A stretch of 64,000 bases of DNA, from the NCBI GenBank assembly GCA_049319825.1, contig JBMORT010000002.1, positions 204,072 to 268,071 of the forward strand, read 5' to 3'. A model generated the notes under the pieces. The model did not search any database. It was given only the letters and a program-made list of their open reading frames with translations, and was not told the origin of the DNA. The number at the start of each line of letters is the position of its first letter. Positions within the stretch are counted from its first letter, which is position 1. This document shows positions 17,423-59,427 of this stretch, piece by piece. Position numbers and translations under genes: made by a program. The DNA comes from Patescibacteria group bacterium. Lineage in GTDB: Bacteria; Patescibacteriota; Patescibacteriia; UBA11705; DATKZF01.

Positions 17423-17983
17423 TCAAGCATTTGAAAATATAATCTTTGCGCATGCCCGAACAGCGTCATCGAGCCGATTTTCAGGGTTAGCTACTGAAAA
17501 ATCGGCATATTTGGCCATTTCTTTTTCAGCCGGTATTTTTTCCAATCGTTTTTTTATTCGTTCCGAACCGAGATGCCTTTTTTTTAACCGGTTTTCCAAT
17601 GAAGCAGTGTCATTCCCGTCAATGAAAATGATGATAGAATCGTGGCGGTGGAATTCCGGCTTGTCGATGGACAGCGGATCGATCGTGCCGATCGCCGCTT
17701 TGCCACGGCTCCAAATATCCTCAATGTTTTCCATTGACTTGCCGTAATAATTGCCGTAGACAAGATCGTATTCCAATAGTTTTTTTTCTTCGATAAATTT
17801 TTGGAAATTATCGGTCGACACAAATTCATATTCTCCCGTTGTTTCATGGTTTTCACCGCGCGGCTCGCGGGTGGTATAGGTTTTTATCCTTTCCAGCCGG
17901 TCAGGATATTGCTGCAGCAGTTTATTGATGATGGTCGTTTTTCCGGCTCCCGACGGTCCGGAAATGATTATCAATTTATACAT
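17423..17983 (-). CDS. gmk: guanylate kinase
   Basis: P-loop GPSGAGKTT, YTTREPR..E..G..Y.F. Confidence 0.9.
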   Translation of the reverse strand: MYKLIIISGPSGAGKTTIINKLLQQYPDRLERIKTYTTREPRGENHETTGEYEFVSTDNFQKFIEEKKLLEYDLVYGNYYGKSMENIEDIWSRGKAAIGTIDPLSIDKPEFHRHDSIIIFIDGNDTASLENRLKKRHLGSERIKKRLEKIPAEKEMAKYADFSVANPENRLDDAVRACAKIIFSNA

Positions 17984-17989
17984 ATGGTA

Positions 17990-19555
17990 TTACGCATTGC
18001 CCGAATTACCCAGAATTTGTTTTTTGTTTTTTAATAAGAATTCAGCCGCCTCTTCCTTGGTGTAGATCCTGGCGGCCAGTTGCTCTTCCCGGACCATTTC
18101 CTTTGCTGCTTTGATCCACGGGCCGCCTTTTTTAATCATGAATACCTCCATTATTTCCATGCCGTCTAAAAGCTCGGCCGGCAGATGCTGCTGCTTTTCT
18201 CTAATGGCGTTGATTTTGCGGATTCTTTTGACCAGAGCATTATAATTATCCAGCGGCACAGATCCGTCAGGCCTAAGCGAGCATAACGAGTCGAGATAGA
18301 AAAGCATCAGCAGGCGATGACCTTTGGGACCCATGAAATATTTTTCAATGGTAGTATTTTTAATGGTGGCCGGGTTGGCGGAAACCGCGGTCATGTGCCT
18401 CTCTATTAAAAATTTGATCTGCTCGATTTGCTTTTTGGGAAATCTCAGCCGGCGTAGGATTGCATCGGCGATTTGCGCCCCGGCTTCATCATGACCGAAA
18501 AAGGTGATTTTCGCTTGTCCGTTTTTTTGGGTTTCTTTTCTGGTGGCGGGCTTGCCGATGTCATGAAGCAGCATGGCCATGACGAATTGCCCGTCAATTT
18601 TCGAGTCCGGAAATTGTTTTTTGAATTCCGGGGATTCAATCTTTCCGAGCATCAGCTTAGTATGTTCCCAGGTATCGCCTTCATAGTGGAATTCCGGCGG
18701 CTGCTCGCAGCCTTTTAGCGCCGACAATTCAGGCACGATCTGCTCGAAGACTCCTGATTTGTCAAAGAGGTCAAAGGCTCGGGTCGGATTGGCTTCCAGG
18801 GCCTTTAGCATTTCTTTTCTGATCGTATCTTCAGGCACGATTCGTTCTGTTTTGCCTTCGTTATTTTTCCTGGTGTCATTTAAATGCTTAGCGTTAGCAA
18901 TGATCGCCTGCCAAGTTTTCGGCTCGATTTCAAAGTCGAATTTGCAGGCGAAGCGGATGGCGCGCAATATTCTCGAATAGTCTTCTTTGAATCTTTCATT
19001 CGGATCGCCGACCGCGCGAATGATTTTATTTTCCAAATCCTTTTGCCCGCTGAAAGGATCGATCAGCTTGCCTTCGCGGACATCATAAGCCATGGCATTG
19101 ATAGTCAGATCGCGCCGGCCGAGATCTTTTTCGATCGGTAAATTGGGATCAGCCTGCACTTCAAAATCGCGGTAGCCGCCGGTGCCGGCAGCGTATTCCA
19201 CGCGCGGAAAAGCGATATCGATCGCTTCTTTGAGGCTTGAATCGGCGGGCATGAATTTATAAACGCCGAAATTTCTGCCGACCAGATCCAGGCTGCCTTT
19301 TTCCCGGGTCAAGGCGCTTTCTAATTCCTCTCGCGATATTTTTCTGAAAATAAAGTCATAATCCTTTGATTTCCCGGCTCCCAGCAGCGTGTCCCGAACA
19401 ATTCCGCCGACCAAATACAATTCCAACTGATCAAGCTCTTGATTTTCGATCAGGTCATCCAAAAAGCGCTTGATCGACGGCTCGGTTAAGATTTTTTTGC
19501 GGAGCTTATCTTCGGGCGTTTCTTTTTTGAAAAATATTTCTTTAAAAAATTTCAT
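17990..19555 (-). CDS. cca: CCA-adding tRNA nucleotidyltransferase with HD domain
   Basis: pol-beta NTase motif LVGGIVRD plus HD motif LLHDIGKP. Confidence 0.8.
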   Translation of the reverse strand: MKFFKEIFFKKETPEDKLRKKILTEPSIKRFLDDLIENQELDQLELYLVGGIVRDTLLGAGKSKDYDFIFRKISREELESALTREKGSLDLVGRNFGVYKFMPADSSLKEAIDIAFPRVEYAAGTGGYRDFEVQADPNLPIEKDLGRRDLTINAMAYDVREGKLIDPFSGQKDLENKIIRAVGDPNERFKEDYSRILRAIRFACKFDFEIEPKTWQAIIANAKHLNDTRKNNEGKTERIVPEDTIRKEMLKALEANPTRAFDLFDKSGVFEQIVPELSALKGCEQPPEFHYEGDTWEHTKLMLGKIESPEFKKQFPDSKIDGQFVMAMLLHDIGKPATRKETQKNGQAKITFFGHDEAGAQIADAILRRLRFPKKQIEQIKFLIERHMTAVSANPATIKNTTIEKYFMGPKGHRLLMLFYLDSLCSLRPDGSVPLDNYNALVKRIRKINAIREKQQHLPAELLDGMEIMEVFMIKKGGPWIKAAKEMVREEQLAARIYTKEEAAEFLLKNKKQILGNSGNA

Positions 19556-52134: not shown

Positions 52135-52795
52135 ATTACGAATTTTCCATACTAGAAGATAAAGCATAGCTATGTTTTTGTTACAAATATTACGAATTTT
52201 ACGAATTACAACCACTAATTTGGGAAATCGTAATTTTGTTACGAATTACAATCACTTTCGAGATTTAGGAATTCGAGCTTCACAATCCCTGAATCAAACT
52301 CGGTTTTGATCCATCATCCATGTTCCATGATTCAAGACTTTATCAACAATTCAATTTTTGCATTTCAATTCATATTTGATAAAATAAAGCCGAGGGTCGC
52401 CGGAAACCCTAGCATCAACAATGTCATTGGGGTTACAATCCGGTACCCTCACTGTATTCGATATAAAAAATACAAAATTTGAAATTGGGGATAGACAATG
52501 GAAATCTCCTGTTTCTAAATATTCTTCAGTCAACTCAATATCTCTCAAATCCTTATCCTTGCCTGATGGCTCGCGCAGTAGTTTGTCAGATTCGCTTAAT
52601 CGGGCAATATAAAAAAACAGGACGCCGGGTCCTGATTTTATATTGGGAATTGGAAACTGGAAATTAGAAATTGGGAAAATGTCTACGGATCTATGAAAAA
52701 ATGGATCAACGGATTGCAAACACATATAACATATAACTGATGAATAAATCATTGTTATTTGTTTCATGCTTCATGCTTCATGCTCCATGGACAAA

Positions 52796-57333: not shown

Positions 57334-58428
57334 TTATGATTTGACATAATTCTGATTCCCCAGATTCTTCACCATGCCTTTCATTTCCATTATAGTCAGA
57401 TTCGAATTGATTTCGCCAGCGCTGAGGCCGGTCAGCTTGACGACAAGATCGATGTGCTTGGGCTCGTCGGACAAAATTTCCAAAATCCTCTGCTCGATCG
57501 GACTGGCCGGCAGAATTTTTTTGTTTTCGGAATATTCTTCAATTTTTTCAATGTTTAACTCTTCCAATATATCGTCGACGCCGGTCACCAGCTTGGCCCC
57601 CTGTTTGATCAGATCATTGGTGCCTTGACTGACCGGAGAAGTGATCGGACCGGGAACAGCAAACACTTCGCGATTTTGATCAAGCGCGTATTTGGCGGTG
57701 ATCAGCGCGCCGGATGTTTCCCCGGCTTCAATGACCAGAGTTCCGACGCTCAGTCCGGAGATGATTCTGTTTCTGGTCGGGAAATTATGTCGCAGCGGAA
57801 GCGTGCCGATCGGGTATTCGGACAGCAGCAAGCCGCCGTTATCCAATATTTGCTGAGCCAGATAGCGATTAGATGTGGGATAAATATTTTCTCGATCAAT
57901 GCTTGAGCCGAGAACGGCAATAGTTTTTCCGCCGTATTTTATTGTTTCCGAATGAACCAACGAGTCGATTCCCAAAGCCAGACCGCTAACCAAAGTCAGC
58001 TCGGCCTTGACCAGGCCCCGCACCAGTTCCGGCACGATTTGCTGTCCATAGCCGGATATTTTTCGAGTGCCGACTACGGCTAAGGATATTTTTGACAAGC
58101 ATTCAATGTTGCCGCGATAAAACAGCAGCGCCGGCGATCCGTGTATTTGCTTGAGCGGCGCCGGGTATTCCGGCTGAGTGAAAAATATTGCTTTTAACTT
58201 GGCGGATTGGAATTTTTCTAGCTCTGATTCCGGATCAATAAATTTTCGCTTGGCCGCGAATTCCTCGGCCACGGACATTTCAATCCCGGCCTGCATCATT
58301 TCTTGCGGACGTGCATTGAAAGCGTCTTTGAGCGATGGGAAATAATTGAACAATCGCTTGAGACGAACCGAACCGATTTTGGGAAATCTGATAATTCCCA
58401 GACAGTATTTTAATTCTTCGATCAGCAT
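57334..58428 (-). CDS. dprA: DNA processing protein A (DprA/Smf)
   Basis: Rossmann-like DprA core AVVGTRK..G..LA.G.D...H; start at internal ATG 58428. Confidence 0.8.
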   Translation of the reverse strand: MLIEELKYCLGIIRFPKIGSVRLKRLFNYFPSLKDAFNARPQEMMQAGIEMSVAEEFAAKRKFIDPESELEKFQSAKLKAIFFTQPEYPAPLKQIHGSPALLFYRGNIECLSKISLAVVGTRKISGYGQQIVPELVRGLVKAELTLVSGLALGIDSLVHSETIKYGGKTIAVLGSSIDRENIYPTSNRYLAQQILDNGGLLLSEYPIGTLPLRHNFPTRNRIISGLSVGTLVIEAGETSGALITAKYALDQNREVFAVPGPITSPVSQGTNDLIKQGAKLVTGVDDILEELNIEKIEEYSENKKILPASPIEQRILEILSDEPKHIDLVVKLTGLSAGEINSNLTIMEMKGMVKNLGNQNYVKS

Positions 58429-58487: not shown

Positions 58488-58516
58488 TTGACAAAAAATG
58501 TTTGAAACGATAGAAT
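58488..58516 (+). promoter_or_regulatory. sigma70 promoter TTGACA-17-TAGAAT
   Basis: drives candidate ncRNA. Confidence 0.5.
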
Positions 58517-58522
58517 TTTATT

Positions 58523-58653
58523 GATGATCGCCCCGCTGCGACAGGGTGAATGGCGCATCGCCCGAATAACCCCTGTTGGCTCACCCATTGCGCCAGCTCA
58601 ACGAAACCGCAAATCGCCCGCAAACAATCATTGTTTGCGGGCCTGCCTTTTTT
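58523..58653 (+). ncRNA. candidate ~130-nt structured RNA with pseudoknot-compatible pairings and terminator
   Basis: interleaved complementary pairs ACAGGG/CCCTGT and TGGCGCA/TGCGCCA; 11-bp terminator stem CCCGCAAACAA/TTGTTTGCGGG then T6. Confidence 0.35.
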
Positions 58654-58831
58654 AAAAAAGTGCCGTAACCAGTAAAAGGAAATAGCTTACGGAAATAGCA
58701 TGAGTTTTTGGCTCTGCTGTGGGTTTGGCATTTCGAGCTTTATTTTTGTGTAAATTTAGCATGTTATCATTGTTTATTGACAACCTTCATAATTATTTAT
58801 AAACTGAAATCGCTTGAAAAACAATGTCACG

Positions 58832-58860
58832 TTGACATTCTCCATATTTTATGATATAAT
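58832..58860 (+). promoter_or_regulatory. sigma70 promoter TTGACA-17-TATAAT with ~200-nt leader to GC-rich lipoprotein gene
   Basis: perfect consensus; second weaker promoter TTGACA-17-TAAACT at 58777..58805. Confidence 0.55.
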
Positions 58861-59073
58861 AGAAAGTCAATTCAGAGGAATGGGAGAATGAATTTTTTAA
58901 CAATACGCGCATGATTTTGCTTATCGGCCGGGTCAGTGCTAGCAGCCCCTCCTCTGCTGCCGAGTACCTGCGTTGGTAAGCAATATCATGAGCGGTATTG
59001 TCCGATAGAATCCCCGGATCCTCGAGATAGCGGGGATTCATTGTATACGACAAACTCACGGAAGGAGTTAACT

Positions 59074-59427
59074 ATGTCCAAGTTGGTAGTTCTGGCTCTT
59101 CTGGTCGGAGTCGGTGGCTGTACGCTGAGCGCGGGTCCGCCGGTTCTCGTCAATACCCCGCACTACGCCTACCATTCGGGCGGCCTGTGCAATGACGGGT
59201 TCTACTACGACGGCTATTACTGCCGTGCGGCCCGGTTCGCCCATGTCTTCTACCGTCCACACCCCGAGTACGGCCGCGGCTACTACCACGGCTACTCGGG
59301 CCATGCCTACTACCGCCATCATCCCTACCGCCGGCCAACCGTCGTCGTCACCGATCACCAGCAGCACCGTAAAGTAAAGGTGGTCAAGGTCAAGCGGCCC
59401 CGCCATCGTCCCCATCGCTATCGCTAA
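59074..59427 (+). CDS. small Tyr/His/Arg-rich lipoprotein on GC-rich island
   Basis: GGAGG RBS, signal peptide with lipobox-like VGGC, GC ~62%. Confidence 0.5.
   Translation: MSKLVVLALLVGVGGCTLSAGPPVLVNTPHYAYHSGGLCNDGFYYDGYYCRAARFAHVFYRPHPEYGRGYYHGYSGHAYYRHHPYRRPTVVVTDHQQHRKVKVVKVKRPRHRPHRYR

Follow-up and report, generated by a model that had tools for sequence, protein, structure and literature searches.

Locus and Genomic Context

The 64-kb stretch of DNA analyzed here, referred to as the window, originates from a Falkowbacteria-like Patescibacteria genome, and the DprA protein that it encodes is closest to those of Falkowbacteria/Patescibacteria metagenome-assembled genomes. The dprA gene (57334..58428, minus strand; PF02481 and PF17782) starts at the ATG at position 58428, and the extension of its 5′-end to position 58623 in the list of open reading frames (ORFs) is spurious. 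A 645-nt spacer separates dprA from a lipoprotein-like ORF located on the plus strand (59074-59427). The candidate RNA gene that is the subject of this study lies within this spacer, in divergent orientation with respect to dprA. The initial annotation had located the candidate between dprA and a lipoprotein leader; the position was correct, but the stretch described as a leader is a 97-nt long hairpin found at 58902-58998.

The candidate segment is a G+C island (0.54–0.57, with flanks of 0.27–0.37), and its location in an AT-rich spacer is what would be expected for an RNA under selection. The first ORF found 3′ of the candidate is the one that starts at position 59074, 420 nt further on, and it is preceded by a separate promoter at 58832..58860 on the plus strand, a perfect TTGACA-17-TATAAT arrangement (12/12 matches) that belongs to the next downstream unit and is outside the candidate. 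A mobile-element origin of the candidate was considered and rejected because no similarity to phage or plasmid sequences was detected.

The lipoprotein-like ORF has unusual properties of its own. Its G+C content is 0.60–0.67 within an AT-rich genome, and the encoded protein has a lipobox-like N-terminus (LVGVGGC) followed by a basic body rich in Tyr, His, Arg, and Pro. When 5.8 billion proteins were searched with a k-mer-based method, only the protein itself was retrieved. ORFs of similar composition occupy the same position in two of the related loci described below (L001 and L072), and in a third one (L154) this position is taken by a longer ORF that is also G+C-rich.

Promoter, Terminator and Predicted Transcript

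The candidate begins with a sigma-70-type promoter (58488..58516, plus strand) consisting of TTGACA at 58488-58493, a 17-nt spacer, and TAGAAT at 58511-58516, with 11 of the 12 consensus positions matched. Sites with at least this number of matches are rare, 16 in both strands of the window (128 kb), and several of the others are located upstream of genes or tRNAs. On the minus strand, a weaker promoter-like site for dprA (58494→58466) is back-to-back with the −35 hexamer and overlaps it. On the other end there is an intrinsic terminator hairpin (58616..58642, plus strand; GCCCGCAAACAA/TTGTTTGCGGGC) with 12 bp, seven of them G-C, and a 3-nt loop. It is followed by the 3′ tail CUGCC plus U6 (58643..58653, plus strand; T6 at 58648-58653), which is part of the signature GG-N-YY-UGYC-UUUU shared by the clade. 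Both elements had been recognized in the initial annotation, and our analysis agrees with it except that the stem is counted as 12 bp and that CTGCC separates the stem from T6. The same annotation mentioned that ATCGCCC is repeated at both ends of the element. The repeat is real, but there are three copies, at positions 58527, 58557, and 58613, and they are not restricted to the two ends.

The terminator is one of three called in the 2-kb neighborhood. Since the promoter is rare and so few terminators were called, it is unlikely that the two elements are paired by chance. The presence of a promoter upstream and of a U-tract after the hairpin on the plus strand only indicates that this is the strand that is transcribed. 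We consider that the unit that goes from promoter to terminator is credible, and that, judging from their nucleotide sequences, both elements look real. A strong promoter of the sigma-70 type, placed back-to-back with that of dprA, would drive the synthesis of an RNA of ~130 nt (58523..58653, plus strand), with a start at G58523 or A58524 as inferred from the spacing to the −10 hexamer and an end within the U-tract, where a strong intrinsic terminator would stop transcription. The candidate has the features generally associated with trans-acting small RNAs (sRNAs), i.e., its own promoter, a Rho-independent terminator, an intergenic location, and no conserved ORF.

Related Loci and a Conserved 3′ Tail

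A total of 149 dprA-syntenic loci were gathered from genome and metagenome collections, and the set was later brought to ~160 dprA loci from Falkowbacteria-like genomes. When the 149 loci were searched with the candidate element using blastn and nhmmer, the sole match was L150, which is the source contig as found in a Logan assembly and is 100% identical because it comes from the same genome. The nearest DprA relatives identified in the search of 5.8 billion proteins belong to seven species and share 63–72% identity with the protein in the window, with none above 72%. The closest of them, L070 (72% DprA identity), has a sequence that ends before the position of the 3′ tail. Assemblies from the same species are identical across the units, and thus offer no usable population variation.

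Inspection of the region upstream of dprA showed that every relative for which this DNA is complete includes a small unit in the orientation of the candidate. Most of these units have a near-consensus promoter in front of them; none was found in L153, and the cases of units L001A and L072A are unclear. The bodies of the units are C-rich and cannot be aligned with that of the candidate beyond L070. In this closest relative there is a local similarity in the C-rich middle of the unit, which corresponds to 58546-58598 of the candidate (z = 3.6, p ~0.01). What the units have in common is a hairpin with a tail after it, and the signature of this arrangement is GG-N-YY-TGYC-TTTT. The nucleotide sequence of the hairpin differs from one species to another, and the pairing is kept. 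Each of the six species with complete sequences (L001 = L147, L071, L072, L151 = L152, L153, and L154 = L155) has a single hairpin plus GGNYYTGYCTTTT site, located in the interval from dprA to the next gene and always oriented in the same way.

In the window, the signature occurs once (58639-58651), when 0.07 occurrences are expected, a statistic that is inflated because the counts were made in the very sequences from which the pattern had been derived. It also occurs once in each of these six species, invariably on the candidate's strand and upstream of dprA. The combination of hairpin and tail is not a general style of terminator in this genome, since only one of the 11 YTGYCTTTT sites present in the window, that of the candidate, is preceded by a hairpin. 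Seven coincidences of ~21 bits within stretches of 1 kb are, on these sequence comparisons, not the product of chance. The homology of the units is argued from their position and ~13 conserved nucleotides, because the bodies are not alignable beyond L070.

The units also resemble each other in composition. C exceeds G on the sense strand in all of them, and in most the longest run predicted to be unpaired is C/U-rich and located before the terminator. CCUC or CCCUC motifs are found in the predicted unpaired stretches of the relatives' units. The candidate itself is the least clear case, as it has neither a long unpaired C-rich stretch nor a CCUCC motif.

Coding Potential

An ORF of 43 or 44 codons, which starts at the ATG at 58524 or the TTG at 58521 and ends at the TAA at 58653-58655, spans the candidate. 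Therefore, we considered whether a peptide of 43 or 44 residues could be translated from this transcript as a leaderless or near-leaderless mRNA. The coincidence of the predicted transcription start site with the ATG, as well as the fact that the units in L151 and L154 are also spanned by an ORF, would be in agreement with this idea. However, the predicted peptides are unrelated to each other, and the frames are not consistent among species with respect to the 3′ motif. The unit in L071 lacks a canonical start codon, those designated L001B and L072B are interrupted by in-frame stop codons, and the terminated transcript of the candidate would have no stop codon because the TAA shares only its first base with the end of the U-tract. 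Furthermore, according to a rough estimate, a frame of 44 open codons at the G+C content of the body of this RNA (58%) is expected in about one quarter of the frames. A small-protein gene was rejected on the basis of the unrelated peptides, inconsistent frames, missing starts, and interrupting stops, and a leaderless mRNA is accordingly a very improbable explanation of the unit.

A Conserved Hairpin RNA in the Same Spacer

The long hairpin RNA located next to the candidate (58902..58998, plus strand; promoter at 58832-58860), which has CCCCUCCU in its apical loop, was used as an internal control of conservation. In five species of the candidate's relatives, it shows 86% column identity and an invariant CCCCUCCU loop. 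A covariance model built from this RNA (R1) identified members in ~35 further loci, some of them duplicates of one another, on the same strand and 100–600 nt upstream of dprA. The CCUCCU-loop RNA is thus found beside dprA in ~35 of the ~160 dprA loci from Falkowbacteria-like genomes. Members are 97–135 nt long, divergent from dprA, and carry the anti-Shine-Dalgarno motif CC(C)UCCU in an apical loop of 8–10 nt. Examples, all on the minus strand of their contigs, are those in L001 (3052-3148), L151 (3060-3155), L154 (3242-3339), L005 (365-477), L010 (3584-3696), and L087 (609-726). When 29 members were independently aligned with MAFFT, 95.1% of the cells could pair and 19 of 21 base pairs showed double-sided changes; slid controls were 38–48% paired, and none of 500 shuffles reached the observed values.

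In L005 and L010 the hairpin RNA is free-standing because it has its own terminator within 1–3 nt. In the clade of the window there is no obvious U-tract terminator between the hairpin RNA and the lipoprotein ORF, and for this reason it may be the leader of that ORF. The family had no match in Rfam when the window and its relatives were searched. Of all that was found in the region, it probably deserves the most attention, and we regard the identification of this family, which is absent from Rfam, as a more valuable outcome than the candidate itself.

The comparison of both RNAs is informative in two ways. First, since the hairpin RNA keeps 86% identity and covaries, a constrained RNA would be easily recognized in the same loci and at the same evolutionary distances; the candidate is not recognized in this manner. 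Second, the candidate could be a degenerate tandem paralogue of the CCUCCU-loop hairpin RNA that occupies the slot proximal to dprA. Two copies of the hairpin RNA are indeed found in tandem beside dprA in some relatives at a greater distance (L017, L076, and L111), and the 5′ and pre-terminator segments of the units in the window and in L151 can pair with each other (AUUGAUGA/UCAAC and AUUGAAGA/UCUUCAA) to give a hairpin-like outline. The two RNAs share the intergenic region, the strand, the divergence from dprA, and the richness in C. Nevertheless, R1 and R2, the covariance models of the hairpin family, had no match at E ≤ 10 in 58488-58653 or in the units of the relatives, and nhmmer profile HMMs of the hairpin family found nothing significant in these units. 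The conserved and covarying hairpin RNA and the candidate differ to an extent that makes a tandem paralogue quite an unlikely origin for the latter.

Known RNA Families and Fold of the Body

Comparison of the whole window to Rfam 15 at the gathering threshold identified three tRNAs only, and nothing overlapped 58517-58653 even at E ≤ 10, in agreement with an earlier failure to relate the candidate to known RNAs by its sequence features. The units of the relatives had no match at E ≤ 1, and searches of the window and 11 related loci using both gathering and E-value thresholds returned nothing for units of the candidate's type. Outlines of the SRP RNA helix 8 and of 6S RNA were also compared by eye and rejected because of a poor fit.

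The body of the candidate includes a C-rich segment (58541..58595, plus strand; CGCCCGA, ACCCCUG, CACCCAU) with two perfect complementary pairs, S1 (ACAGGG, 58541-46, and CCCTGT, 58571-76) and S2 (TGGCGCA, 58551-57, and TGCGCCA, 58589-95). The pairs are interleaved in the order 1-2-1′-2′ as described in the initial annotation, in which the topology was interpreted as that of an H-type pseudoknot. The stems exist in the sequence. If they formed, the RNA could be a structured, riboswitch-like cis-regulatory element in which an H-type pseudoknot acts as the aptamer and the terminator acts as the expression platform, and the promoter, the G+C-rich segment, and the intrinsic terminator at its end are those of terminator-type riboswitches. 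A combination of perfect 6- and 7-bp helices that are interleaved is found in 2.1% of the dinucleotide shuffles of the 96-nt body, a rate that is unremarkable because the feature was picked by eye out of 64 kb. Interleaved helices of at least 6 bp also exist in the non-homologous bodies of L154, L001B, L072B, and L153.

The folding analyses did not support the pseudoknot. The full-length RNA folds with z = −2.6, a value that is due to the terminator because the 93-nt body without it has z = −0.18, with 82 of 200 shuffles folding equally well or better. In the nested ensemble, S1 has pair probabilities of 0.05–0.11 and S2 of 0.02, and either stem can be imposed only at a cost of 2.6–2.7 kcal/mol. 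The energies of S1 and S2, each taken alone with its own loop penalty and hence not true pseudoknot energies, sum to ~−17 kcal/mol, compared to −24.4 kcal/mol for the nested minimum free energy structure. A third helix of 6 bp (GGGTGA, 58544-49, and TCACCC, 58581-86) competes with S1. The comparison with other species points in the same direction. The initial annotation had singled out the conservation of the paired segments in homologous loci as a point on which the structure depended, and the S1 and S2 segments are not kept in the alignment with L070 or in the other syntenic loci from the seven related species, in which the neighboring hairpin RNA is preserved. The candidate also differs from terminator-type riboswitches in that it lacks a conserved aptamer, covariation, an Rfam match, and an ORF directly after the terminator that could be regulated, the next gene being distant and provided with a perfect promoter of its own. 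The interleaved pairing is probably incidental, and the riboswitch or pseudoknot interpretation is, by comparison of the sequences, close to refuted. Of the two alternatives offered earlier, a riboswitch-like element or an sRNA, only the latter remains reasonable in view of the promoter, the terminator, the lack of a conserved ORF, and the units at equivalent positions in the relatives.

A Probable Fast-Evolving sRNA or a Possible By-Product of Its Ends

The most probable interpretation, to which we assign a probability of about 50%, is that the candidate is a free-standing, clade-restricted, and fast-evolving sRNA gene of ~130 nt whose product likely base-pairs in trans through C-rich segments. 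According to this model, the units would share an architecture composed of a promoter, a variable 5′ part, a C- or C/U-rich and largely unpaired stretch, and a terminator followed by UGYC-UUUU. The RNA would regulate in trans by base pairing through the C-rich segments, and the conserved 3′ hairpin and tail may serve for stability or for recognition by a protein.

A serious rival, although on the whole an improbable one, is that selection acts on the divergent promoter and the terminator, and that the body of the RNA is a by-product free to drift. The function of such an arrangement could be coupling or insulating the transcription of dprA, or shielding the promoter of the downstream RNA from read-through. 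This would explain why conservation across the clade is limited to the promoter, the terminator, and the tail while the bodies are unalignable, why the promoter-like site of dprA shares nucleotides with the −35 hexamer, and why the body folds no better than its shuffles. However, drift should produce an AT-rich body in this environment, yet the body has 58% G+C between flanks of 27–37%. In addition, the conserved UGYC that is located between the stem and the U-tract is unnecessary for termination, and the similarity between the candidate and L070 is found precisely in the C-rich middle. These observations argue against a body that is free to drift.

Potential Targets

A trans-acting sRNA would have a seed that is conserved together with complementary sites in its targets. 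The 64-kb window was searched for such sites, and none of those identified was convincing as a target. The best in-window complementarity (blastn E = 0.08) consists of 17 of 19 nucleotides at 17993-18011, 10–28 nt upstream of the start of gmk. The plus strand at 17993-18011 is 17/19 identical to 58554-58572, and since gmk is located on the minus strand, the candidate is complementary to the gmk mRNA. The gene upstream of gmk is nucleotidyltransferase-like, with a homologue in L159 that has a PolyA_pol domain, and the matching nucleotides are within a C-terminal extension of this gene that is specific to the window. The match is absent from the gmk locus L156, which comes from the metagenome sample that also yielded L070 and presumably belongs to the same organism. 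As a consequence, gmk was rejected as a target shared with this presumed L070 organism. The 17/19 match is either due to chance, as its E value would allow, or the mark of a lineage-specific target or of a duplication.

A scan of 61 crude gene starts in the 64-kb window yielded translation-initiation regions with weaker duplexes than random coding controls, the energies being inflated by long interior loops. No complementarity between the candidate and the leader of dprA was seen by eye. Three short collinear matches to the candidate were found at 17921-18135, inside gmk and the upstream gene. They do not represent a paralogue because the gapped alignment of this region ranks third among 867 tiles, and a second copy of the candidate in the window was rejected for the same reason.

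Likeness to Known Regulatory RNAs

Our literature searches yielded no reports of comparable regulatory RNAs from Patescibacteria. The closest analogies, which concern the mode of action and not family membership, are found in other groups of bacteria. RsaE/RoxS are C-rich, anti-Shine-Dalgarno sRNAs of the Firmicutes (PMC9266662), and they resemble the candidate in being short free-standing transcripts with their own promoter and terminator as well as C-rich motifs. In contrast, the candidate belongs to another phylum, shows no sequence or covariance-model similarity to them, and has no CCUCC or long unpaired run of C. The streptococcal csRNAs are under the control of CiaR and repress competence via comC (PMC4507080, PMC8186281). 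They are comparable to the candidate in size (~100–150 nt), in the succession of stem-loop, unpaired region, and terminator, and in the link to competence, which in our case is dprA. This link consists of adjacency for the candidate, and the resemblance is one of mode rather than of family. In Legionella, RocR pairs with the 5′ UTRs of DNA-uptake genes, and the FinO-domain protein RocC binds the RocR terminator (PMC7973641, PMC9674577). The only conserved part of the candidate is likewise a terminator with a 3′ tail, which makes RocR/RocC a tentative analogy; the UGYCUUUU tail is not known as a ProQ/FinO signal.

A more ambitious proposal is that the units found beside dprA constitute a new, rapidly diversifying family of sRNAs from one Patescibacteria clade, with no fixed parts other than the terminator with its UGYCUUUU tail and the divergent promoter shared with dprA. 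In this family the tail would dock a dedicated RNA-binding protein and the C-rich body would be a species-specific seed that tunes competence or nucleotide-salvage genes, the gmk match being a possible example. At present this extended version is speculative and, in our opinion, rather unlikely. DNA uptake is thought to be central to nucleotide acquisition in these reduced bacteria. An sRNA divergent from dprA, if confirmed, would be among the first candidates tied to DNA uptake, in this case by position only. Taken alone, the candidate is one orphan sRNA prediction in one metagenome-assembled genome.

Other Small Units and Spacer Motifs

Several other small units were observed in the course of these comparisons. 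A G+C-rich hairpin RNA, GAGGGUCGCCGGAAACCCUAGCAUCAACAAUGUCAUUGGGGUUACAAUCCGGUACCCUC, is located near the downstream end of topA (52383-52450, plus strand). It was detected in the window by nhmmer (E = 0.018), with homologues, all on the minus strand, in L094 (7925-8025), L025 (4679-4769), L024 (7498-7582), and L089 (4535-4615), and it had no Rfam match at E ≤ 10. The GGNYYTGYCTTTT matches found in L094, L025, and L099 belong to this different small RNA, and were for this reason discarded as members of the dprA-side units.

In L001 (3383-3640, minus strand) and L072 (3206-3455, minus strand), the unit that bears the tail is ~250 nt long and includes a conserved ORF of nine codons, M(I/V)VSTSFAS, preceded by a strong Shine-Dalgarno sequence, AAGGAGGTG. 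Between these ~250-nt units and dprA there is another unit rich in C (3742-3850 in L001 and 3545-3640 in L072). In L153 (3545-3760, minus strand) the dprA-side unit consists of two tandem hairpins of ~65 nt, each followed by CCCCUCCAC-AAUC, and it extends without interruption to the start called for an EI24-family gene; the synteny at this point is unlike that of the other relatives.

Finally, the A-rich motifs AGTAAAAAGCAAAA...AAAAAGTAAAAATA recur in the spacers, for example at 3940-3920 and 3700-3680 of L001 and in neighboring spacers (minus strand). A short GTCCC-N4-GGGAC hairpin comes after most of them, and the majority are found upstream of the promoter regions of the small units, where they might be the binding sites of a regulator.
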